Part shown: piece by piece, positions 1 through 18,913 of the stretch
How positions within the stretch are numbered: position 1 is the first letter of the stretch
Layout: each line of letters opens with the position of its first letter
Assembly (NCBI GenBank): GCA_036338695.1
Contig: JAYZBQ010000028.1
Span: forward strand, 1-19,591
Origin: Myxococcota bacterium
Lineage (GTDB): Bacteria > Myxococcota > UBA4151
Length of the DNA stretch: 19,591 nt
Direction: 5' to 3'
Program-made: the position numbers and the translations under genes
The notes under the pieces: model-generated
Told to the model about the DNA's origin: nothing
Databases searched by the model: none
Seen by the model: only the letters and a program-made list of their open reading frames with translations

Positions 1-1
1 C

Positions 2-730
2 GGCTGCGGCGACGGCTCGGTCTGGGAGGGCAACGAGGAGTGCGACGACGGCAACCGCGACAACTTTGACGCCTGCCTGAACGCTTGCACCGCCGCCCGC
101 TGCGGTGACGGCGCGCAGCGCCTGGATCTGTCGGAAGGGGATGAGGGTTTTGAGGCCTGCGACGACGGCAACAGCGACTCCGATGACGCCTGCCTGACGA
201 CCTGCGAGCTGGCGCGCTGCGGCGACGGGATCCACCGCCGTGACCTCAACCCCAACCACCCAGACTTTGAAGAGTGCGATGACGGCAACGACTCCGACGA
301 TGATGAGTGCTCGACGACCTGCATCTCGCTGGGCTGCGGCAACGGCCGCCTCAACGAGGGCGAAGCCTGCGACGACGGCAACATCGAGGACGCAGACGCG
401 TGCCGCAACGACTGCACGCTTGCCGCTTGCGGTGACGGGGTCACCCGGCGCGACCTGCAGCCGGGCGAGGCGAACTATGAAGCCTGCGACGACGGCAACG
501 CGGTCGACACGGACGCGTGCACCAGCGGCTGCACCGTGGCGGTGTGCGGTGACGGGGTGGTGCGCCTTGACCTCGCCGAGGGCGCCGAGGGCTTTGAGGC
601 TTGCGATGACGGCAACGCGGTGGACGAGGACGCCTGCGTGGGTTGCCAGCCGGCGCGCTGCGGCGACGGGATCGTCCGTGAGGACCTCAACGACGGCGAT
701 GACGGCTTTGAGGAATGCGACGATGGCAAC
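2..730 (+). repeat. Diverged direct duplication of 1641-2369 (offset 1639)
   Basis: Seven consecutive repeat units are colinear between the first two genes, including distinctive ones ([66 protein letters not shown]). A 44-bp exact match links 35-78 and 1674-1717. Confidence 0.9.
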
Positions 731-1048
731 AGCGACGATGGCGATGGCTGCTCCGCTCAATGCGAGAATGAGATCACCTGCCAGCGGATGGGGTGGAAGT
801 ATGGGCGCAACAACTGGAGCTGCCCGAACGGTCTGAGGATGCCCACGCGCAACGAGTGGAACCGGGTTGAGCCCTGTGTGACGCAAGCCGATCAGGCACG
901 GTTTGGTTACTACCGAGACGTCGCCATCAGCGTCGGTGGGTGCAACTGCAAGTGGAACCGTAACTGGTGCGGTCAGCCCAGCATCGAGACGATTCGAGGT
1001 GGGCGGATGTGCGGCGATTACGACAGCCTTCACATCTGCGTTCGGTGA
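2..1048 (+). CDS. Cys-rich repeat (Myxococcus cysteine-rich/DUF4215-type) surface protein with C-terminal CLec/DUF1566-like tip; 5' end outside the window
   Basis: Frame +2 is open from base 2 ([25 protein letters not shown]...) and continuous with the listed 536..1048 ORF. Seven CDDGN units are visible, then a ~90-aa non-repeat tail with CPNGLRMPTRNEW and terminal HICVR. Confidence 0.9.
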   Translation, partial: GCGDGSVWEGNEECDDGNRDNFDACLNACTAARCGDGAQRLDLSEGDEGFEACDDGNSDSDDACLTTCELARCGDGIHRRDLNPNHPDFEECDDGNDSDDDECSTTCISLGCGNGRLNEGEACDDGNIEDADACRNDCTLAACGDGVTRRDLQPGEANYEACDDGNAVDTDACTSGCTVAVCGDGVVRLDLAEGAEGFEACDDGNAVDEDACVGCQPARCGDGIVREDLNDGDDGFEECDDGNSDDGDGCSAQCENEITCQRMGWKYGRNNWSCPNGLRMPTRNEWNRVEPCVTQADQARFGYYRDVAISVGGCNCKWNRNWCGQPSIETIRGGRMCGDYDSLHICVR

Positions 1049-1139
1049 TTCTCGAGCAGCCTGCACCTGAAGGTGCTTTGACGTGACCGTGCGGCTGGGT
1101 CAGACTGCGCTTCGGTTGACCTGACCGACGGAGTGAATC

Positions 1140-3416
1140 ATGCGCTGGTGCCTGCCCCTGTGCCTCTTTGTTGCCGCCGCTGGCTGTTCATCGCCTGATC
1201 CGGAAAGCCAGGCACGCTGCGGCGATGCGCGCCTTGGCGCAGGGGAGGAATGTGACGACGGCAACAGCGTCGATGACGACGCCTGCACCAACGCCTGTAC
1301 CCAGGCGGCGTGCGGCGACGGGATCCTGCGCACCGACCTCGCCGAGGGCGTCCTCGGCGCCGAAGGGTGTGATGACGGCAACGATTTTGACGGCGACGGC
1401 TGCTTGACCACGTGCGTGGTGGCAACCTGCGGTGATGGCGTTCTGCGCACGGACCTGAGCGTCGACGATGAGGGCTATGAAGCCTGTGATGATGGCAACG
1501 ACGAGGACTGGGATGGCTGCAACACCCGCTGCGAGGCCATCGGCTGCGGTGACGGCGTGGTTCAGCCTGAGATGGGCGAGGCCTGTGACGACGGCAACGA
1601 GATCGACACCGACGCATGCACCAACCGCTGCCGACCTGCAGGGTGCGGCGACGGCTCCGTCTGGGAGGGCCAGGAGGAGTGCGACGACGGCAACCGCGAC
1701 AACTTTGACGCCTGCCTCAACGCCTGCACCGTTGCGCGCTGCGGTGACGGCGCGGCGCGGATGGATCTGTCGGAGGGTGAGGCGGGTTATGAAGCCTGCG
1801 ACGATGGCAACAGCGACTCCGATGATGCCTGCTTGACCGACTGCAGCGCGGCGCGCTGCGGTGACGGGGTGTACCGACGCGACCTCAACCCTTCGCATCC
1901 CGACTTTGAGGAGTGCGATGATGGCAACGACTCCGACGATGATGAGTGCTCGAGCGAGTGCGTCTCGCTGGGCTGCGGCAACGGGCGCCTCAATGACGGG
2001 GAGGCTTGTGACGACGGCAACATTGAAGACGCCGACGCCTGCCGAAACGACTGCACGCTCGCAGCCTGCGGTGATGGGGTCCTCAGGCGCGACCTGGAGC
2101 GCGGCGAGGAGGGTTTTGAGGCGTGCGATGACGGCAACGTCGTGGACACCGACACCTGCACATCGCTCTGCCTGGCAGCGACCTGCGGCGACGGGTTTGT
2201 GCGCCAAGACCTCGCTGAGGACCACGAAGACTTCGAGGTCTGTGATGACGGCAACGCGCAGGACGATGACGCCTGCTTGGGCTGTCAGCCCGCTCGGTGT
2301 GGTGACGGCGTCGTGCGCACGGATCTGCAGGACGGCGAGGACGGCTTTGAGTCGTGCGATGACGGCAACGACGTCAACGATGACGCATGCCCTGACAGCT
2401 GCCTCTCGGCGCGTTGCGGCGACGGGATCCGGCGAGCTGACCTCGATGAGAACGCCCAAGGCTATGAGGCTTGTGATGACGGCAACGAGCTGCAGACGGA
2501 CGCCTGCTTGAACAACTGCGTGCTGGCGCGCTGCGGCGACGGCTTGCAGCGCCTGGATCTACAGCCCGGTCAGGACGGGTACGAAGCCTGCGATGACGGA
2601 AACCAAGTCCAGAGCGACGCCTGCCTGTCCAACTGTGCGGTCGCCGCGTGCGGTGACGGTCAGGTGCGCGCAGGGGTCGAAGCCTGCGACGACGGCAACC
2701 AGGTCGACACCGATCAATGCCGCAACAGCTGCGTCGAGGCGCGCTGCGGCGACGGTGTGGTCTACGCAGGGTTTGAGGGCTGCGATGACGGCAATCAGGT
2801 GCAAGACGACGGCTGCAACAACCTCTGCCGTTTAGGCTCATGTGGCAACGGTCAGGTCGATCAAGGCGAGCCCTGTGACGACGGCAACAACGACGACGAC
2901 GACGCCTGTCGCAACGCGTGCGCAGCGGCAGCCTGCGGCGACGGCGTAACCCGGGTAGACCTGCAAGAAGGTCAGGCGGGTTACGAGAGCTGCGACGATG
3001 GCAACTTGGTGGACGGTGACGGCTGCTCGGCAGCCTGCTTGAGCGAGCGCCCGCCCCTGAATCAAGATCTTGGCGCTGAGGGCAACGGGGTGGTGCCGAT
3101 TGCCTTCTGCGGCTTCGCACAAGGGCGGGCGGCGCCGGGCGCGCCGCTCGAGCGCGTCGGGATCTACAATTCGCGTCGCACGCCTCGCGAGCGGCACATG
3201 GGGCACGCCAACTGGGACAGCTTCTGCCGAGCGAACGGCTGGCGCGCCTCGAATTCAGGCTACGGTAACTGGAACCACGACTGCGCCCGCGTGATGACCT
3301 ACTGGTCGGATCGCAACGTCGGTACGGGCCGCGGGCCCCACCAGTCCAACAGCTACCCGCCCAACCGTCAGGCGACGAGTCACATCTACATGACCTGCAT
3401 TGGGGGTCAGGATTGA
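1140..3416 (+). CDS. Lipoprotein with 17 Cys-rich CDDGN repeats and a unique ~125-aa C-terminal domain
   Basis: GGAG at 1130-1133 before the ATG; lipobox signal MRWCLPLCLFVAAAG-C; 17 CG(D/N)x..ExCDDGNxxxxDxC units counted; Arg/Asn/Trp/Gly-rich tail from ~3039. Confidence 0.92.
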   Translation: MRWCLPLCLFVAAAGCSSPDPESQARCGDARLGAGEECDDGNSVDDDACTNACTQAACGDGILRTDLAEGVLGAEGCDDGNDFDGDGCLTTCVVATCGDGVLRTDLSVDDEGYEACDDGNDEDWDGCNTRCEAIGCGDGVVQPEMGEACDDGNEIDTDACTNRCRPAGCGDGSVWEGQEECDDGNRDNFDACLNACTVARCGDGAARMDLSEGEAGYEACDDGNSDSDDACLTDCSAARCGDGVYRRDLNPSHPDFEECDDGNDSDDDECSSECVSLGCGNGRLNDGEACDDGNIEDADACRNDCTLAACGDGVLRRDLERGEEGFEACDDGNVVDTDTCTSLCLAATCGDGFVRQDLAEDHEDFEVCDDGNAQDDDACLGCQPARCGDGVVRTDLQDGEDGFESCDDGNDVNDDACPDSCLSARCGDGIRRADLDENAQGYEACDDGNELQTDACLNNCVLARCGDGLQRLDLQPGQDGYEACDDGNQVQSDACLSNCAVAACGDGQVRAGVEACDDGNQVDTDQCRNSCVEARCGDGVVYAGFEGCDDGNQVQDDGCNNLCRLGSCGNGQVDQGEPCDDGNNDDDDACRNACAAAACGDGVTRVDLQEGQAGYESCDDGNLVDGDGCSAACLSERPPLNQDLGAEGNGVVPIAFCGFAQGRAAPGAPLERVGIYNSRRTPRERHMGHANWDSFCRANGWRASNSGYGNWNHDCARVMTYWSDRNVGTGRGPHQSNSYPPNRQATSHIYMTCIGGQD

Positions 3417-4516
3417 GGCTGCGACAGCTCGGGGTCCTCAGCGCGCTGAGCTGGGCAGCCCTCGGTTGTCAGCCACCGGTTGAGGCCGGCTGCGAGGGCG
3501 CCGAGTTCGTGGCGCTCGAGGGCGAAGGCGCCGTGGCGGTGCCGGCGGGCGTGCGGCGCTTTAACCGCTTCGGGATGAACGTTGAGATCTGGTACCCGGG
3601 TGTTCCAGGCAGTGAGGCGGGCAGGGAACCACACGTCTATGACCTGCGGCGCTACTTGCCGCCCGAGGAGGCGGCGAAGGTCAGCGATGCGCAGAACCCG
3701 TGGCAGCCATGCCCCTGCTATGACGGGCTCCCGCTCGACACCCGCCGGGGTCCTTACCCTGTGATCGTGTTCATCCACGGAACGGCGGGTTATGCAGCCC
3801 AGAGCGCACAGCTCACGGCGTATTGGGCGAGCCAAGGTTTTGTGGTGATCGCCATGGATCACCCGGGCATTTATCTGACCGACCTGCTGGCGCTGAACAT
3901 GGCGCCTCGGCAAGCTGACGATGTACGCGAGCTGCTCGCCGACCTGCGCGCCTTTCGAGGTGGCTTCGCCGAGCTTGAGGGCGCCGTCGACCTACAGCGC
4001 ATCGCGATCACGGGTCACAGCGCGGGGGGCTACGCGTCGGGCGAGCTCGGCGATGAGCAGGGGGTCCAGCTGTTGATGCCCATGGCGGCGGGCGGCACCT
4101 CGGCGGCGGGTCCCATGAGCCTTATTTTAGGGGCTGTCGACGACCAGGTCGTCCCCTACGCTGACGCTGAGTCCGGTTACGAACAGACGCCGGGTGAGAA
4201 GCTCTTGGTGGGGCTCAACAACGCAGGTCACCTTGCCTTTAGTGACCTGTGCGCCATGGGCAGCGACCAAGGCGGGTTGGTGGTCATTTTGCAAGAGACG
4301 GGGATCTCGATACCGGACGCAGCGGGTGATCTGGTCGAGCGTCTCGGCACCGACGGATGCGCTGAAGGTCAGATGAGCCCAGAGCGGGGCTGGGCGATCA
4401 CGCAAGCCGTCACCGGCAGCTACCTGAGCGCTCGGCTGCAGTGCCGCGGCGAGGAGATGTCGGCTGAAGCCATCGCCGCAGCCTTCGGAGACGATGTCAC
4501 CGTGCGCGCTCCGTAA
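3413..4516 (+). CDS. Lipoprotein alpha/beta-hydrolase (PAF-acetylhydrolase/chlorophyllase-like)
   Basis: TTG start overlaps the upstream TGA; lipobox AALG-C; PVIVFIHG, GFVVIAMDHPG, nucleophile GHSAG, Asp in GAVDDQVV, His in AGHLAFSD. Confidence 0.85.
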   Translation: MRLRQLGVLSALSWAALGCQPPVEAGCEGAEFVALEGEGAVAVPAGVRRFNRFGMNVEIWYPGVPGSEAGREPHVYDLRRYLPPEEAAKVSDAQNPWQPCPCYDGLPLDTRRGPYPVIVFIHGTAGYAAQSAQLTAYWASQGFVVIAMDHPGIYLTDLLALNMAPRQADDVRELLADLRAFRGGFAELEGAVDLQRIAITGHSAGGYASGELGDEQGVQLLMPMAAGGTSAAGPMSLILGAVDDQVVPYADAESGYEQTPGEKLLVGLNNAGHLAFSDLCAMGSDQGGLVVILQETGISIPDAAGDLVERLGTDGCAEGQMSPERGWAITQAVTGSYLSARLQCRGEEMSAEAIAAAFGDDVTVRAP

Positions 4517-5708
4517 ACCGGATCGGCAGAGTCTTGATCCCGGCGATAAAGTTGGAGCGCAGGCGGCGCACGTCGCCGGCTTGCTCGATCGATGTCATGC
4601 GCTCAGCCATCGCCTCAAAGAGGAGGCGGATCTCAAGCCGAGCCAGACTCGAGCCGAGGCAAAAGTGCTCGCCGACGCCAAAGGCGAGGTGCTCGTTGGG
4701 GCTGCGGGTGATGTCAAAGCGGAACGGGTCTTCAAAGCGCGCTTCGTCGCGGTTGGCGCTGGTATAAAACAGGGCGATCTTGTCGTTCTCTTTCATCTCG
4801 ACGCCATGGAAGTTCAGGTCCCGCGTGCAGGTGCGGCGCATGTAGATCACCGGCGTTGACCAGCGTAAAATTTCCTCCGTAGCGCTGCCAGCCAGGCTCG
4901 GGTCGTCAACGAGCCGTTGCCACTGGTCAGGGTGCTCGAGCATGGCGAGCAAACCGCTCGAGATGGCGTTGCGAGTGGTCTCGTTGCCGGCGACGCTGAG
5001 CAGCAAAAAGAAGGCGTTGAACTCGGCCTCAGTGATCGCCTCGCCGTCGACCTCGGCGTTGAGCAAGACGTGGATCAGATCATCTGCGCGGCGACCGCCG
5101 CGCCCCTCGACGAGCTCTTGGGCATACTGCCAGAGCTCCATCGCAGCGATCCGGGAGTCGTCGATCGAGGTTTGGACTTCTGGGTCGTCAAAGCCGATCA
5201 GGCGGTTCGTCCAGTCAAAGATGAGCTGAAAATCCGAGTCCGGGATGCCCACCAACCGACAGATCACCCGCAGCGGCAGCTCGGCGGCGACCTCGCGGAC
5301 AAAGTCGATCTCACCGAGCGGGAGGATGCGGTCCATGATCTCGTCGATGTCGTCGCGGATGCGCGTCTCCATCAGGCGCACCATCCGCGGGGTGAAACCC
5401 CGGCTCACCAGCTTACGGAATTTGGAGTGCTGCGGTGGGTCCATGTTGAGCATCAGCTGACGGATCGGGAACAGGTCTTCGTCGGCGTAATCATCGAGCG
5501 TGGTGCCGCCGCGCCAGGACGAGAAGTCTTGAGGGTTCTTGGACATCTCGGCGATGTGATCGGCTTTGGTGATCGCCCAGAACGGTCGCCCGTTCGGCAT
5601 CTCGTGGCGGAAGATCGGCTCCTGGTTGCGCAGCAGCGTGAGCTCGTCATGAAGGACGCGTTCAGCCCAGCTGTCCAGGTCGTAGAGATCGACGTCGGCA
5701 AGGTTCAT
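4497..5708 (-). CDS. Cytochrome P450, CYP125/CYP124/CYP142-like (steroid C26/C27 or methyl-branched lipid omega-oxidase family)
   Basis: MLNMDPPQH, RKLVSRGFTPR, I-helix VAGNETTRN, EEILR (ExxR), heme motif FGVGEHFCLG, terminal RLRSNFIAGIK; AAGGA upstream of the ATG. The subfamily is from remembered motif similarity, not a search. Confidence 0.93.
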   Translation of the reverse strand: MNLADVDLYDLDSWAERVLHDELTLLRNQEPIFRHEMPNGRPFWAITKADHIAEMSKNPQDFSSWRGGTTLDDYADEDLFPIRQLMLNMDPPQHSKFRKLVSRGFTPRMVRLMETRIRDDIDEIMDRILPLGEIDFVREVAAELPLRVICRLVGIPDSDFQLIFDWTNRLIGFDDPEVQTSIDDSRIAAMELWQYAQELVEGRGGRRADDLIHVLLNAEVDGEAITEAEFNAFFLLLSVAGNETTRNAISSGLLAMLEHPDQWQRLVDDPSLAGSATEEILRWSTPVIYMRRTCTRDLNFHGVEMKENDKIALFYTSANRDEARFEDPFRFDITRSPNEHLAFGVGEHFCLGSSLARLEIRLLFEAMAERMTSIEQAGDVRRLRSNFIAGIKTLPIRFTERAR

Positions 5709-5741
5709 AAAGGGGTCCTTTGTCGGTCATGGCTGCACGAC

Positions 5742-5755
5742 TTAAACCGGTTCGA
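5742..5755. promoter_or_regulatory. KstR-like operator box (TnnAACnnGTTnnA)
   Basis: TTAAACCGGTTCGA = T-TA-AAC-CG-GTT-CG-A, ~34 bp upstream of the P450 ATG in the divergent intergenic region. Confidence 0.6.
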
Positions 5756-5798
5756 TTTGGGATCGACAAGGGCTGAGCGGGTGATTTTGCGAACCGAT

Positions 5799-5812
5799 TG
5801 AAACATGTTCTA
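5799..5812. promoter_or_regulatory. KstR-like operator box (TnnAACnnGTTnnA)
   Basis: TGAAACATGTTCTA inside the extended dyad CGATT...AATCG (5795-5816), ~22 bp upstream of the crotonase ATG. Confidence 0.7.
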
Positions 5813-5834
5813 ATCGCTCGGCGGGAGAGCGACC

Positions 5835-6722
5835 ATGTCCGATGAGGTTCTTTTTGAGTTAGACGGTCACGTGGCGGTGGTGACGCTGAACCGTCCTACC
5901 GCGCGTAACGCCCTCAATCTCGCTGCCCTTGCAGGGTTGGCCGACGCCTGGGAGCGGATCGAGCGAGACGCCACCGTCCGCGTCGCCATCCTCACCGGCG
6001 CCGGTGGCCACTTCTGCTCAGGCAGCGACCTCAAAGACATGCACGGCGACCACAGCGCCAACCCGGTCCACAAACGCTTCGTCCCCAAAGACCAGCTCGT
6101 CGAGGCGGCGCTGACCGCGCTGCGCGAGGGGCATGAGCGCCAGGCTCAAGAGCTCCTTGAAGAGCACCAAGGACGCGCCGATGAGGTGCCGCTGCACTGG
6201 CGCGCTTTTTTGCGCGACCGCCGGCTCGCAAAGCCGCTGATCGCAGCGGTCGAGGGCTACGCGCTCGGCGGCGGCACCGAGGTGCTCCAGGCGTGCGACC
6301 TGCGCGTCGCTGGGCGCTCGGCGCAGTTTGGGCTCACCGAGGTGAAGTGGGGGCTTTTCCCCTTGGGCGGCTCGACCGCTCGGTTGCCCAAGCAGATCCC
6401 GTACACGCGTGCCATGGAGCTGTTGCTCACAGGGGCTCGTATGAGCGCTGAGGAGGCCTACCACTGCGGCTTGATCGGGCGCGTGGTTGATGACGGCGGG
6501 GCGCTCGAGTCGGCGCGTGCTTGGGCCGATCAGATCGCCGCCAACGGTCCGTTCGCGGTCCAGAGCGTACTCGCAAGCGTGCGCGCCGCCGAGGGGCTCA
6601 GCGACGCTCAAGCGGTCGCTACCGTCGACGGTCACGGCAACCCGGTGCTCTACAGTCAAGACGCTCGCGAGGGTGCGCGTGCCTTTCGAGAGCGGCGAAC
6701 TCCCGAGTTCAAGGGCGAGTGA
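5835..6722 (+). CDS. Enoyl-CoA hydratase/crotonase family, EchA19-like
   Basis: LNRP.ARNAL, ILTGAGGHFCSGSDL, RRLAKPLIAAVEGYALGGGTE, FGLTEVKWGLFPLGGS..RL..QIPYT, IAANGP.AVQ, DAREG.RAF; both catalytic Glu present; GGGAGAG upstream of the ATG. Confidence 0.92.
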   Translation: MSDEVLFELDGHVAVVTLNRPTARNALNLAALAGLADAWERIERDATVRVAILTGAGGHFCSGSDLKDMHGDHSANPVHKRFVPKDQLVEAALTALREGHERQAQELLEEHQGRADEVPLHWRAFLRDRRLAKPLIAAVEGYALGGGTEVLQACDLRVAGRSAQFGLTEVKWGLFPLGGSTARLPKQIPYTRAMELLLTGARMSAEEAYHCGLIGRVVDDGGALESARAWADQIAANGPFAVQSVLASVRAAEGLSDAQAVATVDGHGNPVLYSQDAREGARAFRERRTPEFKGE

Positions 6723-6785
6723 GGCGATTTATCCCGTTGAGAACTCGGGTGCCTTCGGCTAGGCTCTCGCCTGAGGAAAACGCCC

Positions 6786-7574
6786 ATGATGATGCTCAGT
6801 GCCGTACTTGCGCTCGCCGCACCTGCGCCGGGTGACGCGCCCGACCTTGCGATGATGGACATGAAGGCGGTCCATGGCGTCGAGGATTCGCTCGCAGCTG
6901 TTCTCAACGAGAGCTTCCTGGTGGCGCTGAAAAACAGCGGCAAGTTAGGGAACGTGGTCGGCGGTTCGGACCTGCGCGCCATGCTCGACCTCGAGCAGCA
7001 AAAGCAGGCGCTCGGTTGCGGCGACGACGGCTGCCTCGCCGAGCTCGGGGGCGCGCTGGGTGTCCCGTATCTGTTCTACACCAGCTTAGCGAAGGTCGGC
7101 TCCAAGTACGTGATGCACTACAAGGTGATGGCGGTGGAGGAGGCTAAGGTGGTCGTGCGCGGCATGAAGACGGCCGCAAGCGATGATGCGCTGCTCGAGA
7201 TGCCGCAGATTTTGGTGACGGAGGCGATGGCCGGCATGTTCCAGCAAGCGCCGTCTGCTCCAGCCACCCAACCGGCGCCTCAGGCGACGGCTACGCCATC
7301 GAGCGCGCCGAGCGCTGCGGCGCCCGCTCAGCCAAGTCAGCCGATCAAGATGAGCCGCTGGCTTGGGGTCGGGCTGACGGTCGCTGGAGGCGGATTAGCC
7401 GCTGCGGGTTACAGCGGCTTTGCCAGCGCTCGTGACAGCTACGCGGCGCTCACCGAGCCGACCAGCGCCGACTACGCCAATTATGAGGCGGCGGCTGCGC
7501 CGGCGAATTCGATGTGGATTGGCGGATTGGGGCTGGCGGTGGTCGGCGCAGGATTGGCGGTGGTCGCACCATGA
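6786..7574 (+). CDS. Secreted/membrane hypothetical protein of the myxobacterial [15 protein letters not shown] type, with Pro/Ala linker and Gly-rich hydrophobic C-terminus
   Basis: GAGG upstream; N-terminal signal; [22 protein letters not shown] motif; QPAP-rich linker; two Gly-rich hydrophobic segments; stop overlaps the next ATG (ATGA). Confidence 0.8.
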
Positions 7575-10500
7575 GGACCTTAGCGACGTGGGTATGGATC
7601 GGGAGCCTGAGCGCATGCCTTGCGCCGAGCCCTTTGGATAACCCGGTGGTCAACGCAGAGCATCAAGCCGGCGGCGCCGCCGTGTGCACGCAAGACAGCG
7701 ACTGCGACCACACCATGGTGTGTTCGGCGGGCGTCTGCCTGGCGGCGGGCGGTGACCGCGCCGTATGCGGCAACGGCGTCGTCGATGAGGGCGAGGCCTG
7801 CGACGACGGCAACGCCGAGGACAACGACGCGTGCAGCAACGCCTGCGTGGTGGCGCGCTGCGGTGACGGAGTGGTGCGAACAGACCTTGCACCCGCCGAC
7901 AGTGAGTACGAGCAGTGCGATGACGGCAACCAAGACGACACCGACGCGTGCACCAACGCCTGCCAGGTCGCACGCTGCGGCGACGGGATCGTCCGAGCCG
8001 ACGCCGACGAGGGCGAATCTTGCGATGACGGCAACGAGATCAACACCGACGCGTGCACGAACGAATGTCAGGCTGCGCACTGCGGTGACGGGATCACCCG
8101 TGAAGACGTCGCCGAGGGCGCCGAGGGCTATGAGGCGTGCGACGACGGCAACAACGACGACGATGACGCCTGCTACGACTGTCAAAACGCACGGTGCGGC
8201 GATGGCGTGGCGCGAACGGACCTCTCGGGCGCTGATGAGGGCGCCGAGGCTTGCGATGACGGAAACGAGATCGAAACAGACGGCTGTCTGAGCAGCTGCG
8301 ACCTGGCACGCTGCGGTGATGGTCACACACAAGACGGGGTCGAGGACTGCGACGACGGCGACCAGGACGACACCGACGAGTGCACCAACGCGTGTGGGGG
8401 CGCACGCTGCGGCGACGCAATCACCCGGATGGACCTTGAGGAGGGTAATGAGTTCTTTGAGGCTTGCGACGACGGCAACCAAGTGCAGACCGACGACTGC
8501 CTAAACGACTGCACCGCGGCGTCGTGCGGCGACGGCCACCTCCAAGCAGGGGTTGAAGGCTGCGACGACGGCAACGTGGACCCTGGGGACGGCTGCGACG
8601 GGCTCTGCCGCTTGGAGTCGTGCGGTAACGGGCGAGTCGATGCGGGGGAGGAATGCGATGACGGCGACCAAGACAACACCGACGCGTGCATGAACGAATG
8701 TCAGGCTGCGCGCTGCGGCGACGGTGTTGAGCGTGAAGACCTCAATGACGGGGACGAAGGCTTTGAGTCATGTGATGATGGCAACGAGATCAACACAGAC
8801 GATTGCACGAATGAATGTCAGGACGCGCGCTGCGGCGATCGCTACGTTCAAGCGGGCGTTGAAGAGTGCGATGATGGAAATCAGATCGATCAAGATCAGT
8901 GTAGAGAAAATTGCCAAACAAATAGGCTGCCGACGCTCGCAGCGGTGACGATTAGTCCTTTATCGTTGACCAAAGGAGCTTCTGCTGCCTGTGCCCCGTC
9001 ATTGCCTGGAGCAATCGATCGGGAGGGCGATGACATCGTTTACGGCTACCAATGGTTCATTGGTGGGGACGAGATCTCAACAAACCGGACGATTATTGTG
9101 ACGCATAATCCGGGTGTATCACTGGTTTGCGCGGTCACTGCGAACGATTACGAATGTGAGCTTCGTGGTCGCTGCGGAACGCCGGTCCGATCAAATCCGG
9201 TGGTCATCGGACACAGATGCGGTGACTCGGTCGTCCAACAGGGCGTTGAAGAGTGCGACGATGGTAACGAGGACAATACCGACGCTTGCGTTAACTGCAG
9301 TAACGCTCGATGCGGCGATAGTCACGTTCATGACGGCGTGGAAGCCTGTGATGATGGCAACGACAACAACAATGACCAGTGTCGAAACGATTGCACGGCT
9401 TCTGCGGTTTGCGGCAACGGCCAAGTTGAACAGGGCGAGCAGTGCGATGACGGCGACCAGGACGACACGGACGCGTGCACCAACGCCTGTCAGGCTGCAC
9501 GCTGCGGGGACGGTATTGAGCGTGAGGACCTCCAAGACGGTCAGAACGGTTTCGAGGCTTGCGATGATGGGAACAACATCGATACCGACGCCTGTTTGAC
9601 GAACTGTCAGGACGCTCGGTGCGGTGATAATCGTCTTTGGCAGGGTGAAGAAGAATGCGATGATGGAAACACCGACAACGGTGATGGATGCGATCAGAAT
9701 TGCGATATCGAAGAGCCGGATTCAGCGCTGATCACAGCGGGTGATTTTCATACCTGTGTGGTGCGCGACCTAAACGAAGACGGCAATGGGCACATCTGGT
9801 GTTGGGGCGAGAACACGCACAAACAGCTCGCTATCAACAACAATAATATCCAATTCCGAGCCCCGGCGGAGCGGATCACGAGTCAAGAACAGGCTTGGGA
9901 GGCGATCGGTGCTGGTGCACGCTTTACACACGCATCGCATGGTGCGGTGGTTTATAGTTGGGGGTCATCCATGATATCCAATAACGGCTTGGGCTGGGGT
10001 GTAAATGAGGGTGTCACTCAGTGGCAACGGTCCGAATTTGGTGCGATGCCTCTGACTCAGAGGTCTTGGGGTGAAGAGGACGTCGTCGAAATTGCTGGCG
10101 GTCATGCTATGTCCGCTTTTCGTACCGACTCTGCTGTCTATGTGGTGGGCTGTTCAATTTTCAGAAATGATTCCAACAATCTCGCTTGTCGGCCGGGTTT
10201 GAAGTGGTCAACTGAAGGCCAAGTGAACCGCGCGGAATCAATTCAAATCAGCGTGGATGGAAACGATCAAAACTTTGCAGCGGTCGACATGATGATTGGC
10301 GACAATTATCTGTGTGCCAAGCAAAGAGATAACGCAGTGTATTGTCTGGGGTCGAACATACCTGCCGTTGCGTTGGGTCGGTATAATTTTGACGGTGGTG
10401 CAACGTGGTGGCGAGGTGAGATCGCTAGGGTTCAGCACCCCCAAAACAACAATGATGATGATTGGTTACAGGCAACCGTTGAGGGTTTGGCAGCAGGCGC

Positions 10501-11026
10501 GAAAGGGCTCAATTGTGTGAACACCAACAACCAAATTCAATGCATTGGATTCCATGCCGGTCAGGTGCAGAAGATGACCATACGTCGAGGGGATGGTAAT
10601 GCCCTAATCTTGAATCAACCCCTACGCGACTTAGCCGTAGCTGAGTCGGTGGGTTGTTTTGTGGATCATGGCGGTTGCGTGAAGTGCTTTGGGTCGAACC
10701 ACGAAGGTCAACGCGGCAACGGTCAAAGAGAGAACTGCGGACAAAACCAGTGCCATTTTGACCGTGCGACACCCGTCGAAGCGTTTTGTCGACAGAACGA
10801 TCCCCTCGGTGACGGAAACATCACCAACGTAGTTGTCGGTGCGACGCACACTTGCGCGGCGACGGCGAACGGCGAAGACGTCTGGTGCTGGGGCAAAACT
10901 GATAAGGGTCAAGCGGGTTCGCAAGCACAGGGTATTTCACACTGTCTGTGTCCCGTTCAGGTCTTGTTTTCAGACAATGAGAATGAGCCTCAACCGACTT
11001 GTCCTATGGGTTGTAGCTCCAATTAG
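7571..11026 (+). CDS. Large lipoprotein (~1151 aa): 16 Cys-rich repeats, an internal Ig-like domain and a C-terminal RCC1/BLIP-II-like beta-propeller
   Basis: Start reassigned to ATG 7571 (coupled to the upstream TGA; lipobox [16 protein letters not shown]). 11 + 5 CDDG(N/D) units flank a beta-rich domain (~8921-9215). RCC1-type motifs [53 protein letters not shown]. Confidence 0.9.
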
Positions 11027-13191
11027 CTTCGGTTCCTTCGCCTCAAGCCGATCAGCCCGAGCAGCCAGAGCGCGTCGAGCCCGCCCGCGCTTGAGCAGCC
11101 GCAGCCAGCGCCCGGTGTGATCGGGGCGGGACAGCTCGGGTCGGTGCCCTCGAGCGTTGCGCAGGTCACCGGCGCGCAATCGCTCGAGCAGGATGCCAGC
11201 GCAGCGTTCGTGTTTTGCTCGCCATCATCGCAGGACTCATAGCCTGCCTCACCCTCGCTCAGGTCGTCGCGCAAGACACCGTCGCCGCAGGTCGCCAGCA
11301 CGCAGCCGTTTCGGCAGGCGTCTGTCTCGACCTCATTGGCGTCGTCGCAGCCCTCAAAGCCCTCTTCGCCAGCGCTTAGGTCCGTGCGGGTGAAGCCGTC
11401 GCCGCACTGAGCGGGGGTGCAGTCGGTTAGGCAGGCGTCGTCGTTCGCCTCGTTGCCATCATCGCAGCCCTCGAGGCCTGCGCGCAGATAGCCGTCGCCG
11501 CAGACAGCCGTGACACACCCTGAGACGCAGCCGTCGCTGTCCGAGCTGTTGCCGTCGTCGCACGCCTCCACGCCGGCTTGAACGTAGCCGTCACCGCAGC
11601 GCGCCGGCTGGCAGTCGGCGCAGGCGTCGGTGGTGTCCTCGTTGCCGTCATCGCAGCGCTCAAAGCCGTCATCACCATCTGGGATGTCTGTCCGCACGAC
11701 GCCGTCGCCGCAGCGCGCCGGCTGGCAGACGTTGGTGCAGGCGTCGTCGTCGGCTTCGTTGCCGTCGTCGCAGCCCTCGACGCCCAAGAACACCACCCCA
11801 TCCCCGCAGCGCGCAGGGGTGCACGCCCCGGTGCAGGCGTCGTTCTCCACAGCGTTGCCGTCGTCACATGCCTCGTCCTCGCCATGCACGAAGCCATCGC
11901 CGCAAGCCGCCGGGACGCAGCCCTCGACGCAGTCGTCACCGTTGTCTTGGTTGCCGTCATCGCAGGCCTCAAAACCCTCGGCGCCCTCTTCAAGGTCGGT
12001 TCGCACCACCCCGTCGCCGCAGACCGCCAGCAGGCAACCGGCTCGGCAGGCGTCGGTGTCGACGTCGTTGCCGTCGTCACAGGCCTCAAAGCCCTCCTCC
12101 TCAGGGGCTCGATCGGTGCGCCGGATCCCGTCGCCGCAGCGCGCTTGGACGCAGGAGGCGGTGCAGCCGTCGGTGTCGAGCTCGTTGCCGTCGTCACAGG
12201 CCTCAAAGCCTTCGTCGCCTGGGGCGAGGTCGCCTCGCTGGATGCCGTCGCCGCATGCGGCCTGCGCGCAGCTGCTCGTGCAGGCGTCTTCATCGACCTG
12301 GTTGCCGTCATCGCAAGCCTCAAAGCCGTCCTGACCGGCTTGTAGGTCGTCGCGGACGACGCCGTCGCCGCAGGCGGCGAGGCTGCAGTCGTTCTTGCAG
12401 CCGTCGGTGTCGACCTCGTTGCCGTCGTCGCAGGCTTCGTTGGTGTCGACGTGCTCGTTGCCGCAGGCGCGCTCAAGGCACGAGTTGGCACAGGCGTCGT
12501 CGTTGTCCCGGTTGCCGTCGTCGCAGTCTTCGTCCTCGTCGACGATCCCGTTGCCGCAGTTGGAGCTGTTCCCCCAGATCAAGGTGTCGCTCATTACGGT
12601 CGAGCCGCCTTGGCTGATCGTCGCGCCCGCCATGGCGTCGTCGTTGCAATAGAAGAACAGGGCGATCGGCTCGTCGGTCTCAAGACCGACAAAGCGGGAG
12701 TCGGAGCGAGGGGTCCAGCGCACCTGGCCGAGCAGGCGCCCTTCGGCGTTGAAGGCGACGAGGTATTGGGTGCCGTTGCGCCCGGCGGTCAGCCCGATCT
12801 GATTGACGGGGCGGTCAAAGGTACCCATCGGACAAAACCAGATGGTGTTTCCTGCGGCGACACCGCCAGCGCTCGTGTTGGGGAAATAGTTGCCCGGGTT
12901 CGGGCGGCACATCGGGCGCGCAAGGTTGCCTCGGACCAGCTGGTTTTGACCGTGATAGAGCCCGGGGCGGACCCGCTGGATGTCGCCGTTATGGAGCGTC
13001 AGACCGTCGGCAGCGTAGGTGTCGTTGCGCTGACCGTTGCCGCAGTAGCTCGTCCAGTCGGCGGTCCCGAGCGGTCGCCCGTTGAGGATGTCGTCTGCGT
13101 GATTCAGGGCGCGCACCTCGCCTTGCGCGGTCACGGTACCCGCCGCGGCGGGCAGGGCGAAGAGGGTCAAAGACAGCGCCAGAGATCGCAT
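11023..13191 (-). CDS. MYXO-CTERM-anchored surface protein (~722 aa): N-terminal beta-sandwich-like domain plus 13 Cys-rich repeats
   Basis: Start reassigned to ATG 13191 (AAGGAG 5 nt upstream; signal [17 protein letters not shown]). 13 CDD(G/A)(N/E) units. C-terminus [29 protein letters not shown] = GCGC + hydrophobic helix + Arg cluster. Confidence 0.9.
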
Positions 13192-13240: not shown

Positions 13241-14233
13241 CTAGGCGTCGAGCCCTTGCTCGAGCCGCTCATACTGCGAGTCGGTGTAGAACTGTTTGAC
13301 CCACTTTCGGAAGATCCCGATGGGGCCGTCACCGTCGCAGAGCACCGGAGGCGAGATGTAGATCTTGTTCTCCCAGATCGGGATGTCTTGCTCGAGCTCG
13401 CGGATCACTGCGGCGCGAAATTTGGACGAGACCAGCTCGAGCATCGCCGGGTCATCGATCATCGAGCCGCCTAAGGTCTTGCGCAGCATAAAGTTGAAGC
13501 GCACGTGCACACGCTCGCCGTCGATGGGGGTCGATGAGGAGACCAGACAGGTCTCAGCGATCCCAAAAAACCGGGTCTGCGTGTAGCCAAAGCCGTAGAG
13601 GTCCGAGGTGATTTTGCCTTCGACCGGCATGCCCTTGTAGGTCATGGTCGCTGGGCTCTTCATGTGCAGGATATGCCCCTCGCGCTCGGCCTCGGTCGGC
13701 GGGATGTTTTGGGTGCCGTGCAGGTAGTGGAAATGCGCTGAGTCCACGGCGTTCTCCGCCATCTCCTGGTTGTGCGTACGGATGATCCAGTCCTTGCGGG
13801 TGTAGTCGGTCCACTCGGGGTGGCCGTACTCGGGCGCCTCGGGCGGGTCCCAGTGCGGCGCCTCGCCGTCGGGGTGGTACCAAGCCAGCACCAGCCCGCT
13901 GCGCTCGACCACGTGCCAAGCCCTCGTGTCCGCTCTTTTGGGCTGCCGGGTGGCGTAGGGCACGTCGGTGCAAGCGCCCGTGCAATCAAATTTCCAGGCA
14001 TGGAACGGGCAGACGACCGAGTTGCCCTCCACGCGGCCGCCGTGCCCGAGGTGTGCGCCGAGGTGTGGACAATAGGCGTCGAGCAGACCTAGCTTTTGGT
14101 CCTCGCCGCGAAAGAGCACCAGGTGTTGTCCAAAATAATGAAGCGGGACGACGGCGCCGACGTCTAGGTCTTCACTGTAGGCGATCTGAAACCAACCGAC
14201 GGGAAACGAGGGCATGGGGAAGCGACGCGTCAT
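13241..14233 (-). CDS. Rieske non-heme iron oxygenase, KshA (3-ketosteroid 9-alpha-hydroxylase)/Neverland-like
   Basis: Start reassigned to ATG 14233 (GGAG 5 nt upstream; ~330 aa). Rieske CPHLG...CPFH; mononuclear Fe motif ENAVDSAHFHYLH; C-terminal QDIPIWENK..PPVLCDGDGPI..FRKWVKQFY. Confidence 0.92.
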   Translation of the reverse strand: MTRRFPMPSFPVGWFQIAYSEDLDVGAVVPLHYFGQHLVLFRGEDQKLGLLDAYCPHLGAHLGHGGRVEGNSVVCPFHAWKFDCTGACTDVPYATRQPKRADTRAWHVVERSGLVLAWYHPDGEAPHWDPPEAPEYGHPEWTDYTRKDWIIRTHNQEMAENAVDSAHFHYLHGTQNIPPTEAEREGHILHMKSPATMTYKGMPVEGKITSDLYGFGYTQTRFFGIAETCLVSSSTPIDGERVHVRFNFMLRKTLGGSMIDDPAMLELVSSKFRAAVIRELEQDIPIWENKIYISPPVLCDGDGPIGIFRKWVKQFYTDSQYERLEQGLDA

Positions 14234-14882
14234 AACATCTCCGTGTGCGCCCGCCTCGGACGCCCGCTCGGCGAAGACTAGAACATGTTCTAGTTGGGGG
14301 AGGCAAGGGCGCAAGGGCGGCGCCTGGGCGCTGCTGCTCGTTTTGCTCGCCTCGGTCTCGCCGGCGGCTGCGAAGACCTCTTCTGAGGTCATTGCGGCGT
14401 CGAGCCAGCCGGTCGTGCGCGTGACCCCGGTCAAGGGGTCGTCGGCGCCCAAGTTGACCATCGAAGTGCTCGTCGATGCGCCGATCGAGAAGGTCGCTCG
14501 TGTGGTGGGCGCCTGCAGCGACTACGTTGGCGTCATCCCTCGCGTCCAGAAGGTGATCCTGCACAAGCGGGGCGTGCCGCATCACGTCTGCGAGCTCTTC
14601 CTCGACATGCCGTTTCCCTTCGCAGATGTCCGCTCGACCATCGGCTACACGGGCAGCGTGACCGCCGATGAGGTGGTGATGCGTTACCAGCAGGTCCGCG
14701 GCGACTATCGTGTGCACGACGGCATGTGGCGACTGCGGGCGCAAGGTCGCCAAACGCACATGCGCTACAGCCTGCACATCGACTTAGGGCAGCCGCTGCC
14801 TAAGTGGATCATCAATATCTTCACAAAGGACGCGCTGCGGCAGACGGTCAAAGAGGTCGCCCGCCGAGCGCAGGCGCTCTAG
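14214..14882 (+). CDS. Secreted SRPBCC/START-fold (polyketide cyclase-like) lipid-binding protein; start uncertain
   Basis: Signal-like WALLLVLLASVSPAAA; VLVDAPIEKV..VV...DY...IP.V; GD....DGMWRL; T.MRY...ID.G.PLPKWIIN. The start is problematic (see findings). Confidence 0.72.
   Translation: MGKRRVITSPCAPASDARSAKTRTCSSWGRQGRKGGAWALLLVLLASVSPAAAKTSSEVIAASSQPVVRVTPVKGSSAPKLTIEVLVDAPIEKVARVVGACSDYVGVIPRVQKVILHKRGVPHHVCELFLDMPFPFADVRSTIGYTGSVTADEVVMRYQQVRGDYRVHDGMWRLRAQGRQTHMRYSLHIDLGQPLPKWIINIFTKDALRQTVKEVARRAQAL
14277..14294. promoter_or_regulatory. Perfect 18-bp palindrome containing a KstR-like operator box
   Basis: ACTAGAACATGTTCTAGT is its own reverse complement; core 14279-14292 = T-AG-AAC-AT-GTT-CT-A; ~45 bp upstream of the Rieske ATG. 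Confidence 0.75.
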
Positions 14883-15918: not shown

Positions 15919-17904
15919 ATGATGAGGCGCGCAGGACTGCTGATGTTGATCGCAGCGTGTTCGACTGAACCGGAGCTGGAACCCTTGGACTTTGCAGACG
16001 GCTGCCAGCCGTTGTTTGCGGGCGAGGAGTGCTTGCTCCCTTATCCCAGCGACTACTTTTTGGTCGATGATCCCAGCCAGCCGTCGGGCAAACGCGTTGC
16101 GATCTCGGGGGCGGCGGAGGTCGTGAGCGACCAGCTGCAGAACGTCGACTCGGGCGTCTTTCGGCCTCAGGATGGCTTCTCGCGCAACCCGACTATTTTG
16201 TTTTCGTTGCTCGAGGAGACGGACGGCGTGGGGCTCGTGCGGCTCGACGATGACTACGAGACCAGCCGTGACCCTTCGACCAGCGCCACCGTGCTGATCG
16301 AGGCGGGCACTGGTCGACGCATCGCCCACTTCGTCGACATCGACCCGATCCCGGCCGAAGGGACGCCGCGCGGGCTGATGATCCGCCCGCTCGAAGAGCT
16401 GCTGCCGCAGACGCGTTACGTCGTCGGCGTGCACGGCCTTGCGGGCACCCAAGGTGTGATCGCTGCGCCGGAGGGGTTTCGGCGACTGCGCGACCAGCAG
16501 AGCGGCCAAGATCCGCTGCTCGAGGCGCTGCAGGCGCGCTACGATGAGACGATTTTCGCGCCGCTCGAGCGCGCGGGGCTCGAGCGCGGCGTCTTGCAGC
16601 TCGCGTGGGATTTCACGACGGCGAGCGATGAGAGCGTCACCGGCGACATGATGCGTGTGCGGGAGCTGACGCTCGAGTGGCTGCAGACGCAGACGCCTGC
16701 GGTGCGCGTGACCGAAGTGCGTGAGTTCAACAACGAGTCACGCGGGATCTGGCGCTACGTCTACGGCAAGATCACCGGGCCCCGCTTTGTCGAGTCCAAT
16801 GAGCTCGGCGCTTGGCTGCACAAGCCGCAAGGCCAGGTGGAGCAAAATGGCGAGTTTGAGTTCTCGTTTATCGTGGCGGTGCCCAATGCGCTCAAGACCC
16901 ACTTTGAGCCAGGGCGTGCGATCGGTTACGGGCACGGCTTCTTCGGCTCGTACCGCGAGGTCGAGGCGGGATCGGTGGCTGGGATCGCCAACCATCTCAA
17001 GACGATCGTGATCGGGATCCCGTGGACTGGGATGACCGAGGTCGACGCGGCGGTGCTCGTGGGCGATATGGTCGACGAGCCCGGTCAGATGATCCGCTTT
17101 GGCGAGCGAGTCCACCAGGCGCAGGCGAACTGGTTGGTCACGACGCAGGTGGTCAAGAATCAACTCTTTGGGCTGCCCGAGCTGCGGCGGCCGACAGAGG
17201 AGGGCGCTGACGGCGTGGTGGTCAACGAGCAAGGTGAATCCAACGCCGGACAAGCCCTCTACGACCCGAGCTGGATTGGCTACATTGGGATCAGTCAGGG
17301 GCATATTCTTGGCGGCACGACCGCTGCCCTGAACCCCGATTTTGATCGCGTCGTGCTCAACGTCGGCGGCTGCGCCTTTACCCATATGATGAGCCGCTCC
17401 TCGAACTTTAGTTACTACCTGATGCTGATCGATACGCTGACGCTCGCAGACCCCTTTGAGCGGCAGAAGATGCTGGCGATGATGCAGCCGATTTTTGATC
17501 GCTTTGACCCCGCGACCTACGCCAAGTACGTCCTGCGCGAAAAGCTCCCAGGCAGCCCAGAAGACCGCCGGGTTCTGATGCAGACGGGCTTTGCGGACCC
17601 ACAGGTGCCGGACTTCACAGCGCAGCTTCACGCCCGCTTGCTCGGGATCCCGGTGCTCGAGCCGAGCCCCGAGGTCATGTGGGGACTTGAGACCACCACG
17701 TCGCCAGCGCCTGGCAGCGCCTTCACCTACTTTAAGTATGACGTCGACGCTGCGTTTCGTCAGGTCGCCCAGCCCACCGATGAGGGCAACGAGGTGCACG
17801 AAGGCATCCGGCGGCTCGACGTCACCAAGCAACAACTCGACGCCTTCTTGCGCCCGGGTGGGGTGATCGAACACTTCTGCGAGGGGCCGTGTGATCCGGA
17901 CTGA
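15919..17904 (+). CDS. Large lipoprotein alpha/beta-hydrolase (extracellular lipase/esterase-like) with N-terminal beta domain
   Basis: Lipobox LIAA-C; CLLPYPSDYF, DGFS, IRP...L.P.TRY.V; YGHGFFGS; nucleophile GISQG; Asp in GFADPQV; His in NEVHEG. Confidence 0.85.
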   Translation: MMRRAGLLMLIAACSTEPELEPLDFADGCQPLFAGEECLLPYPSDYFLVDDPSQPSGKRVAISGAAEVVSDQLQNVDSGVFRPQDGFSRNPTILFSLLEETDGVGLVRLDDDYETSRDPSTSATVLIEAGTGRRIAHFVDIDPIPAEGTPRGLMIRPLEELLPQTRYVVGVHGLAGTQGVIAAPEGFRRLRDQQSGQDPLLEALQARYDETIFAPLERAGLERGVLQLAWDFTTASDESVTGDMMRVRELTLEWLQTQTPAVRVTEVREFNNESRGIWRYVYGKITGPRFVESNELGAWLHKPQGQVEQNGEFEFSFIVAVPNALKTHFEPGRAIGYGHGFFGSYREVEAGSVAGIANHLKTIVIGIPWTGMTEVDAAVLVGDMVDEPGQMIRFGERVHQAQANWLVTTQVVKNQLFGLPELRRPTEEGADGVVVNEQGESNAGQALYDPSWIGYIGISQGHILGGTTAALNPDFDRVVLNVGGCAFTHMMSRSSNFSYYLMLIDTLTLADPFERQKMLAMMQPIFDRFDPATYAKYVLREKLPGSPEDRRVLMQTGFADPQVPDFTAQLHARLLGIPVLEPSPEVMWGLETTTSPAPGSAFTYFKYDVDAAFRQVAQPTDEGNEVHEGIRRLDVTKQQLDAFLRPGGVIEHFCEGPCDPD

Positions 17905-18913
17905 GCGCTCGGCTGTCATCGCCGCGTTGGCGATGGTTTGTGTCGGGTGCTCGTCGCCCTCCTTGCCCGGAGTGGACGCGGGGGCGGCGCCACCTGATGC
18001 GTCGCCTTTGACCGATGCGTCGCCGGGAGACGCTGGGCGGCTTGATGGTGGCTGGCTCGATGCGAGCGGCTTTGATGGGGGAGACCGCCCCGACGCAGGG
18101 GCAGACGATGACGCAGGTCAAGCGCTGGGGGCTGAGTGTGCCTCGCTTCCGCCGGGCTACGCCAAGCAGCTCTGCCTGAAGCCGTGGATTCAAGACCTGG
18201 CCCGACGGCTCGGGCCAGCCGACGCGCTCTGCCAAGCCGAGGAGCTCCTCGAGCGGGGCGAGGTGAGTGACTGTCACCTGCTCGCTCATTTTGTCGGCGA
18301 GGTGGTCTTTGAGCAGCAAGAGCAGGACGCCGCGAGGAGTTTGGTGGCGTGCCCCGCGACCTGTCTGTCGGGTTGCGGTCATCAGGTCATGCAGGAGGTG
18401 GTCGAGCAGCGCGGGCTCAACCGTATCTTTCGAGAGCAAGGCAGCGAGGCGGTCGATCAGGAGCTGCGTCAGCTCGTCCGCCTGTGCCGAGACTACGAGG
18501 ACGATGACCCGGATCAGTTTGCGCTGTGCATCCATGGCATTGGGCACGGGCTCTTGAGCAGCGGATTCTTGGGGCCGGTGGAGGCAGCTGAGCTCTGTGA
18601 TCAAGAGCTTGGCGTGGAGGGCTTCGCCTGCGCCTCGGGCGTCTTTATGGAGTACACCAGCCGGTACATCCGGCTCGATGAGGCGCAGCTGCTCGAGAGC
18701 TTACCGACGATCTGCGAGCTCGGCGGCAATCAGTGGGAGGACTTGTGCTGGCGAAACGTCGGTGAGTCGCTGATGTGGTTTTACGGACACCAGCTCGAAC
18801 GGGTTGTGGGGCGGTGCAACCGGCTCCCCGTCAGCGATGACGCCAAGGCGTGCCGAGAGGGCGCCGAGGTGGAAGCTGGCGTCGCCGATATGCAGCGCAA
18901 CACCTGCCCTTAA
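17891..18913 (+). CDS. Hypothetical lipoprotein with repeated Cys/His helical motifs
   Basis: GTG start overlaps the upstream gene end; lipobox VCVG-C; DAG-rich linker; CHLLAHFVG, GCGHQVM, CIHGIGHG, CASGVFME, CWRNVG. Confidence 0.78.
   Translation: MIRTERSAVIAALAMVCVGCSSPSLPGVDAGAAPPDASPLTDASPGDAGRLDGGWLDASGFDGGDRPDAGADDDAGQALGAECASLPPGYAKQLCLKPWIQDLARRLGPADALCQAEELLERGEVSDCHLLAHFVGEVVFEQQEQDAARSLVACPATCLSGCGHQVMQEVVEQRGLNRIFREQGSEAVDQELRQLVRLCRDYEDDDPDQFALCIHGIGHGLLSSGFLGPVEAAELCDQELGVEGFACASGVFMEYTSRYIRLDEAQLLESLPTICELGGNQWEDLCWRNVGESLMWFYGHQLERVVGRCNRLPVSDDAKACREGAEVEAGVADMQRNTCP

Follow-up and report, generated by a model that had tools for sequence, protein, structure and literature searches.

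Four stalk-and-tip genes on a contig of a marine Myxococcota bacterium and their probable place in a lineage-specific expansion reassorted by recombination

The window analyzed in this study is an entire contig of 19,591 nucleotides (C28; JAYZBQ010000028.1) from the genome of a marine Myxococcota bacterium (G000; GCA_036338695.1; 3.36 Mb, 93.6% complete), and near-identical DNA was found in marine, seawater, estuary and salt-marsh metagenomes. It carries four genes whose products join a stalk of cysteine-rich repeat units to a non-repeat domain, here called the tip. Gene 1 (2-1048, forward strand) is open at its 5' end at the contig start; gene 2 (1140-3416) and gene 3 (7571-11026) are also on the forward strand and gene 4 (13191-11023) is on the reverse strand. 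Our analysis suggests, with fair but not high confidence, that all four are part of a lineage-specific expansion comprising about 100 stalk-and-tip genes, which have been reassorted by recombination, and that the products are likely a surface-displayed recognition arsenal. We infer surface exposure and ligand binding from the architecture, the tip families and analogous systems. An earlier note on this DNA had described a family of four, with 7 or more, 17, 16 and 13 units and a different tip each. Reading of the open reading frames (ORFs) and counting of the repeats bore out the four architectures, but the genes are four of 104 stalk ORFs found genome-wide in a six-frame motif census, which hold 1,157 units and occupy 6.9% of G000 DNA (stop-to-stop lengths). 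Of the 104 ORFs, 29 reach contig ends; the 75 complete ones have 1-31 units, with a median of 12.

The stalk repeat of all four proteins is the catalogued repeat TIGR02232 (myxo_disulf_rpt), or DUF4215 (PF13948), which is known but functionally unstudied. Scores were 116-260 bits for TIGR02232 (cut-off 20.8) and 79-195 bits for PF13948 (cut-off 27). Reassortment of such stalks was seen at base resolution in gene 1. By the repeat model and by sequence, its stalk (2-763) comprises the last seven of a putative 11 TIGR02232 units, and it is followed by tip A (764-1048), a mobile module of Myxococcota-type proteins with 94 amino acids and eight cysteines. Window positions 1-756 match the start of contig C37 at 98.1% identity, with 14 mismatches and one amino-acid change. 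The identity breaks off at 756/757, within the last unit, beyond which the C37 gene runs on into a LamG domain unrelated to tip A. The matching 5' halves, on contigs C13 and C14, are 95% identical, leader included. As the earlier note had held, the anchor of gene 1 is outside the window; its leader and first units are probably those on C13. Because L074, the intact tip-A gene in a relative, is preceded by 2.2 kb that match C13 at 69%, gene 1 is taken to be an 11-unit lipoprotein gene and the C14-C37 gene its stalk twin. The moved part may be either the tip or the leader plus stalk; the latter is favoured because the identity of 95-98% covers both leader and stalk. An assembly artefact at the gene 1 stalk-tip join was rejected, since runs X5, X7 and X13, which come from three other studies, contain single contigs that cross it. 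Tip A shows 0-3 base differences in these contigs. A second X13 contig matches positions 560-730 with four differences and then continues unlike tip A.

A stalk tree of 18 colinear paralogues from four genomes gave a similar picture. The tip-A stalk pairs with the LamG stalk in G000 (support 100/100) and with the tip-B stalk in a relative, G001 (support 95/88). Approximately unbiased (AU) tests on this tree rejected a tip-A clade (p 5e-6 for DNA, 0.005 for protein) and a tip-B clade (p 0.003 for DNA, 0.026 for protein), and weakly rejected the T100 clade (p 0.02). The claim that stalks and tips are modular and exchanged by recombination in the repeats is supported by the 98% identical stalks with unrelated tips and by the incongruent stalk tree. 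Congruence of stalk and tip phylogenies failed for tips A and B, but the T143 grouping survived. In one unit, six G000 paralogues share 86-100% identity, compared with 77-83% to the copies of relatives, and this within-genome likeness reads as the mark of patchy gene conversion.

Comparison of orthologous loci revealed further changes. In G000 and G001 the gene that precedes the hydrolase has tip B; in G003 it has tip A. The unit number of gene 3 varies (16/10/17) while the tip stays, the G003 orthologue of gene 3 gains an FGE-sulfatase-like insert, and gene 4 is missing from the orthologous locus of G003. Across the genus, most tips remain joined to the same gene. The term polymorphic array, used in the earlier note, overstated the rate: only one stalk pair with at least 95% identity (seen as its two contig halves) was found among 85 stalks, a comparison that covered the ORFs with three or more units and omitted 19 of the 104, and tip A is near-invariant across samples. 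No reverse transcriptase was found in the 93.6% complete G000 assembly either by PF00078 or by a motif scan (0 matches each). A diversity-generating retroelement, or fast switching in general, was rejected on these grounds: no reverse transcriptase, a single near-identical stalk pair and a tip A that is stable across samples. The sequence comparisons point to a reassortment that is episodic and on an evolutionary time scale.

The repeat itself is widespread in the phylum, with matches in 103 of 151 genomes at E<=1e-12, and the expansion is family-specific. In the lineage family (f1), 818-1,411 first-look TIGR02232 candidates per genome were found in all five genomes of the sample, whereas the highest other listed row has 605 candidates in 11 Mb; the sample lists 123 rows of 151, the 28 no-match genomes being unlisted. 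Density is 273-362 candidates per Mb in family f1 and at most 79 elsewhere, as computed for 16 rows picked by eye, that is, several-fold to tens-fold above the others. These first-look counts are crude, and the 1,216 obtained for G000 agrees with the 1,157 counted units. All six family genomes searched retain the expansion, which argues against a neutral birth and death of genes driven by the repeats and of little functional value. Such an explanation could draw on the tendency of repeats to promote duplication and on the variable locus content described above; the ORFs have nevertheless stayed long and open, conservation of the tips extends across genomes and the 98% identical pair differs almost wholly at silent sites, so that we give it a very small probability. 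A few stalk ORFs depart from the common architecture. A 5'-open ORF in G000 (C70:2-8398) has 74 units without a C-terminal tip, several other stalk ORFs stop directly after the last unit, and one stalk gene (C10:3150-5351, reverse strand) is split by an in-frame stop into 11 and 4 units, either as a pseudogene or through a sequence error.

The earlier note had proposed that all repeat proteins of the genome be collected and their tips clustered separately. Among the 104 ORFs, 88 C-terminal regions of at least 60 amino acids fell into 37 blastp clusters, one of which is a 41-member chain linked by multi-domain tips. The tip classes are RCC1-like (21), fibrinogen-like (15), Gly-rich (5), PPC-like (5), Lectin_C (3), tip B (3) and LamG (2), together with seven single classes, tip A among them, and 27 tips without a class; six of the Gly-rich and PPC assignments rest on cluster membership. 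One leader class of 30 genes bears at least six tip classes. Two multi-tip proteins were noted in G000, one with RCC1, fibrinogen-like and tip A domains (C26:66744-70175) and one with RCC1, tip B and one further domain (C19:1-2373). The tip of C59:58812-62576 resembles the N-terminal domain of the gliding protein AgmC (NF047640, 69 bits, below the cut-off of 275).

A catalytic or foraging role, in which the stalk presents tethered or vesicle-released enzymes or substrate-capture modules for polymer breakdown, has to be considered in the light of these classes, as PNGase F C-terminal, FGE-sulfatase-like, PPC and Vgb-type tips do occur and 27 of the 88 tips have no class. Most of the assigned tips belong to non-catalytic binding families, and no glycoside hydrolase or protease domain was matched in 85 tips, which makes this role improbable in our view.

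No Pfam family was matched by tip A, tip B or the N-terminal domain of gene 4. Tip A had been called CLec-like; its FISUMP match is below the cut-off (17.3 versus 41.65 bits, E 0.006), which leaves the CLec-like assignment as a lead, and a single-sequence model of gene 1 has a predicted local distance difference test (pLDDT) value of 35. Tip A also ends an RCC1 plus fibrinogen-like protein (80% identity), is conserved across species at 73-79%, and has relatives in records of which 13 of 17 are titled Myxococcota or Myxococcales. Matches of tip A to a designed propeller in the PDB cover 33 residues only and were judged to be chance. Tip B (3039-3416; 125 amino acids, four cysteines) represents a rare, undescribed family: it was found in three other genes (58-75%) and in 11 representatives among 1.84 billion, nine of which were inspected; one (P0010) looks spurious. 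One stalk-less protein of 560 amino acids, P0007, which by eye looks eukaryote-like, contains a relative of tip B (E 8.5e-11). Tips A and B have no detectable relation to each other (hhalign probability 0.8). A fold search with tip B gave no match, the best Z being 3.3 in 48,161 chains with no lectin listed, and none in viral models; the search used a model joining stalk and tip, and its blank result does not demonstrate a new fold. In that model the elements run strand-strand-helix-strand-helix-strand, an order which we take to be CLec-like. Searches of PDB sequences with the stalk as a whole, with tip B and with alignment A4 gave no match, and the best Atlas result for tip B (0.78) is a blank.

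The gene 4 tip, of 193 amino acids and called beta-sandwich-like in the earlier note, lies with the signal peptide at 12562-13191 on the reverse strand. In the Atlas search it reached 0.92-0.93 to unnamed clusters, with PEP-CTERM (0.85) and DUF4465 (0.80) as leads only; a xylanase identity, based on weak PDB rows (E>=0.03), was judged to be chance. A 39%-identical relative occurs in Enhygromyxa salina on a PF00526 Cys-repeat stalk with MYXO-CTERM. More generally, tips A and B and the gene 4 tip occur also on unrelated scaffolds (PF11617, PF02412, PF00526 and ASH-type Ig). The gene 3 tip (9704-11026) is an RCC1-like beta-propeller, as first supposed: RCC1_2 (PF13540) matched at 41.9 bits against a cut-off of 22, while WD40_RLD (PF25390) stayed below its cut-off (87 versus 150). 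GC content is 52-55% over window positions 9001-11000, the region of this tip, against 64% in the genome, and the tip is only 43% identical in the G001 orthologue and 77% in that of G003. The low GC content and the uneven identity are compatible with replacement or import of the tip.

Analysis of the stalks revealed an acidic unit with four cysteines, CG..E.CDDG..D.C..C, invariant in 20 of 20 aligned short units, with a genome-wide spacing that peaks at 31, 32 and 39 residues and a net charge of about -21 per 100 residues. The stalk of gene 2 (1218-3038) has 17 units of 31-39 amino acids, that of gene 3 has 11 units (7766-8914) and then five (9218-9703), and that of gene 4 (11176-12558, reverse strand) has 13 units. 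All three C-tipped genes end the stalk in CDDGNxxxGDGC, as the earlier note had observed, but this is not a rule genome-wide. The GDGC-type motif was found in 17 of 68 last units and in 74 of 792 interior units (odds ratio 3.2, p 3e-4; 3'-open ORFs, ORFs with fewer than three units and tips under 60 amino acids were excluded), and it is present also in interior units of genes 2 and 3. A dedicated terminal unit was rejected as a rule, because the motif is only enriched in last units and also occurs inside stalks.

The unit profile matches six PAPP-A/PAPP-A2 sequences (E 3e-4 to 2e-3) at residues 947-978 in 8hgg numbering, and ADAM17 weakly. The M3 module of PAPP-A is given as S944-G995, with two Ca2+ ions and intradomain disulfides seen by cryo-electron microscopy (PMC9579167, in the part consulted; boundaries given also in the part of PMC11925022 consulted), and the matched residues fall within it. 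A model of the last four units of gene 2 with tip B, from a 66-row alignment, has a pLDDT of about 90 in the stalk and 54-84 in the tip, and its unit overlays PAPP-A M3 with a root-mean-square deviation of 1.2-1.5 A over 35-38 residues, at low Z (2.0-2.9). The profile match shows, and the overlay suggests, the same CG..E.CDD..D.C..C unit in PAPP-A/PAPP-A2 M3 (PDB 8a7d, 7ufg, 8sl1). The module is a single copy inside a human metalloprotease, whereas up to 31 tandem copies occur in complete ORFs here. By its sequence, the stalk unit is homologous to this Ca2+- and disulfide-containing module. The earlier proposal of Ca2+/disulfide units gains support from this homology and from the conserved acidic residues and cysteines, and the stalk would be a chain of Ca2+/disulfide beads.

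Acidic stalks on this scale, over 6.9% of a small genome, would also suit a polyanionic, Ca2+-bridged coat, serving as a shield against grazers or phages or as a matrix, in which the bulk of acidic stalk would count and the tips would be cross-linkers or decoys. A 14-gene cluster of large Cys-rich proteins in Peribacteria, with weak repeat similarity and a proposed role in rigidity or attachment (PMC4736985, as far as the consulted part goes), is consistent with such a coat. A coat needs no 37 tip clusters drawn from binding families, and tip A is as conserved between species as the neighbouring hydrolase (68-70% among relatives); we regard the coat as a possible but unlikely function.

Anchoring was predicted mainly from the N-terminus. 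Gene 2 (signal at 1140-1187) and gene 3 (signal plus a small Cys-rich leader at 7571-7765, kept in orthologues) each have a hydrophobic lipoprotein-type leader ending in Cys16, in agreement with the lipidation predicted in the earlier note. A strict lipoprotein-leader heuristic was passed by 64 of 90 5'-complete ORFs; in most of the other 26, a signal-plus-Cys leader of this kind can be recognized by eye. The claim of both polarities depends on gene 4, which is reversed: among the 3'-complete members of the 104 it alone was flagged with a C-terminal anchor. Its C-terminus (tail at 11029-11106, reverse strand) has a Cys motif, a hydrophobic helix and an Arg tail; the MYXO-CTERM assignment is upheld by TIGR03382 (18.4 bits, 17.1 in a second search, cut-off 15.85) but not by TIGR03901 (12.3, cut-off 20). 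The reversed layout is kept in two relatives (65-77%). Tips are predicted to be distal, as had been claimed, but not all non-repeat sequence lies there: gene 3 carries an insert of about 100 amino acids in mid-stalk (8915-9217) without a family match, and its orthologues (54-67%) and one paralogue on C22 have this insert too.

The layout of gene 4, with signal, N-terminal head, Cys-repeat stalk and MYXO-CTERM-type tail, recalls TraA of Myxococcus xanthus, for which a rigid Cys stalk has been proposed (PMC3325183, consulted part); surface sorting of MYXO-CTERM proteins has been described (PMC11980579, consulted part). Tips that bind the same kind as identity tags, in TraA-like self or kin recognition, would fit this layout. 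No PA14 or TIGR04201 match was found in the four proteins, the repeat family is another one, the near-invariance of tip A among the contigs of three other studies, with 73-79% across species, shows no within-species hypervariability for this tip, and gene 4 alone has the TraA polarity, the rest of the family being N-anchored. Kin recognition is in our judgement improbable.

In the mechanism that we propose for the recognition arsenal, each protein has the observed order of a leader, 1-31 repeat units (median 12) and a non-repeat tip, from at least 37 tip clusters. The leader, lipidated at its cysteine, would anchor the protein, as the MYXO-CTERM tail would in gene 4, so that the tip would be the far end, at the terminus opposite the anchor and away from the outer membrane. 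The homology to PAPP-A M3 and the confident model suggest that each unit is a small module with two disulfides, in which the E/DD/D residues bind Ca2+. Stalk DNA moves between paralogues by conversion or duplication, and one stalk comes to carry different tips because the moved DNA ends at or in the last unit; the homology of the stalks would let new stalk-tip pairs arise. The tips, many of binding families (RCC1-like, fibrinogen-like, C-type lectin and LamG), may have glycan or protein ligands on particles, algae or prey. A more tentative extension, which we rate as possible but doubtful, is that, in a free-living marine family, a recombining repertoire of about 100 target-recognition proteins picks prey or particles, as MAT fibres do for Bdellovibrio, and is the largest known use of a PAPP-A-like Ca2+ bead as a stalk, with tips A, B and two dozen others as new lectin-like families and tip B possibly a new fold.

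Several results weigh against the proposed arsenal. The C37 stalk-LamG join rests on the G000 assembly; the T143 clade was not rejected (p 0.13), which suggests that some stalks are co-inherited with their tips; and the AU tests were picked after the tree had been seen, on an alignment with two partial rows and three rows of deviant base composition. The leader, insert and RCC1 tip of gene 3 are retained together across the genus. The model of the gene 2 stalk and tip B has a low-confidence linker and a predicted template modelling score of 0.49, which leaves a rod-shaped stalk a possibility, and the PAPP-A fold match covers few residues and scores weakly (Foldseek E 0.78, Z 2.0-2.9). The single PF02517 protein of G000 (93.6% complete genome) had no myxosortase model match at E<=1e-5, and there are a few enzyme-related tips (PNGase F C-terminal, Vgb-type propeller). 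In metatranscriptomes, short contigs at 90-97% identity were found in four, where DNA carry-over is possible; the shares in the RNA runs were small (0.04-0.17), and the expression evidence is weak.

The arsenal is best read as working like the MAT fibres of Bdellovibrio or like TraA, while it is a member of neither. Bdellovibrio bacteriovorus has 21 trimeric beta-prism MAT fibres of demonstrated glycan specificity, with swapped tips and a repertoire proposed to scale with target diversity (PMC10769870, consulted part). A conserved cell-proximal end, a long stalk and tips swapped in evolution are shared with them; different are the approximately 100 predicted lipoproteins on putative Cys/Ca2+ beads and the repeat family. 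Fibrillar adhesins (PMC9210967) likewise have an anchor, a stalk of repeated domains and a distal non-repeat domain, but the anchor here is mostly a predicted N-terminal lipid, and DUF4215, RCC1 and myxobacteria are absent from the main text of that paper. A diatom adhesive-trail protein carries twelve such repeats (10.1101/2023.03.06.531300, consulted part), and the link of this repeat to PAPP-A is already hinted at in the consulted part of PMC4736985. All four proteins are members of TIGR02232/DUF4215, and unlike other members they have short units of 31, 32 or 39 amino acids in long unbroken runs and a far higher copy number.

The repeat itself and the anchor-stalk-tip design are thus already known. 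This expansion was not described in the literature searched (repeat names; marine Myxococcota adhesins), which covered few subscription papers. What is new is how large the expansion is, together with a recombination case seen at base level, the testing of the PAPP-A link by profile and by model, and the undescribed tip families. The unstudied DUF4215 repeat gains a probable structural identity, as a PAPP-A M3-like Ca2+ module, and a testable role. A recombination event has been caught at base resolution within an unusually large family-wide expansion in an uncultured marine lineage. The family supplies dozens of small candidate binding domains, presumed to fold independently, whose ligands would reveal the attachment or food targets of the organism; if surface-displayed binders, the family would be a large source of new candidate binding domains. 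Lifestyle markers in G000 (three secretins, one RcpC) leave predation undecided.

Among the neighbouring genes, a 262-amino-acid gene (6786-7574, forward strand) whose stop overlaps the start of gene 3 has no Pfam or NCBIfam match. It belongs to a 19-member family: for 4 of the 19, the next gene downstream on the same strand is a stalk gene, and for 9 of the 19 a stalk gene follows within 300 nucleotides, compared with a background of 39 of 2,919 ORFs (a crude null). The family may supply an export or display partner to some of the stalk genes. A secreted alpha/beta hydrolase gene is coupled to the gene 2 stop, and the intervals 3413-6722 and 13241-14269 hold cytochrome P450, enoyl-CoA hydratase, KshA-type Rieske oxygenase and START-like protein genes. 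The enzyme genes form a lipid/steroid-type catabolic neighbourhood, which is probably unlinked to the stalk genes because it is partly kept in the relative G004 without the stalk-gene tips searched. Finally, positions 15919-18913 on the forward strand hold two lipoprotein-like ORFs of 661 and 340 amino acids without a Pfam or NCBIfam match, which are 76-84% conserved in G001 and G003.

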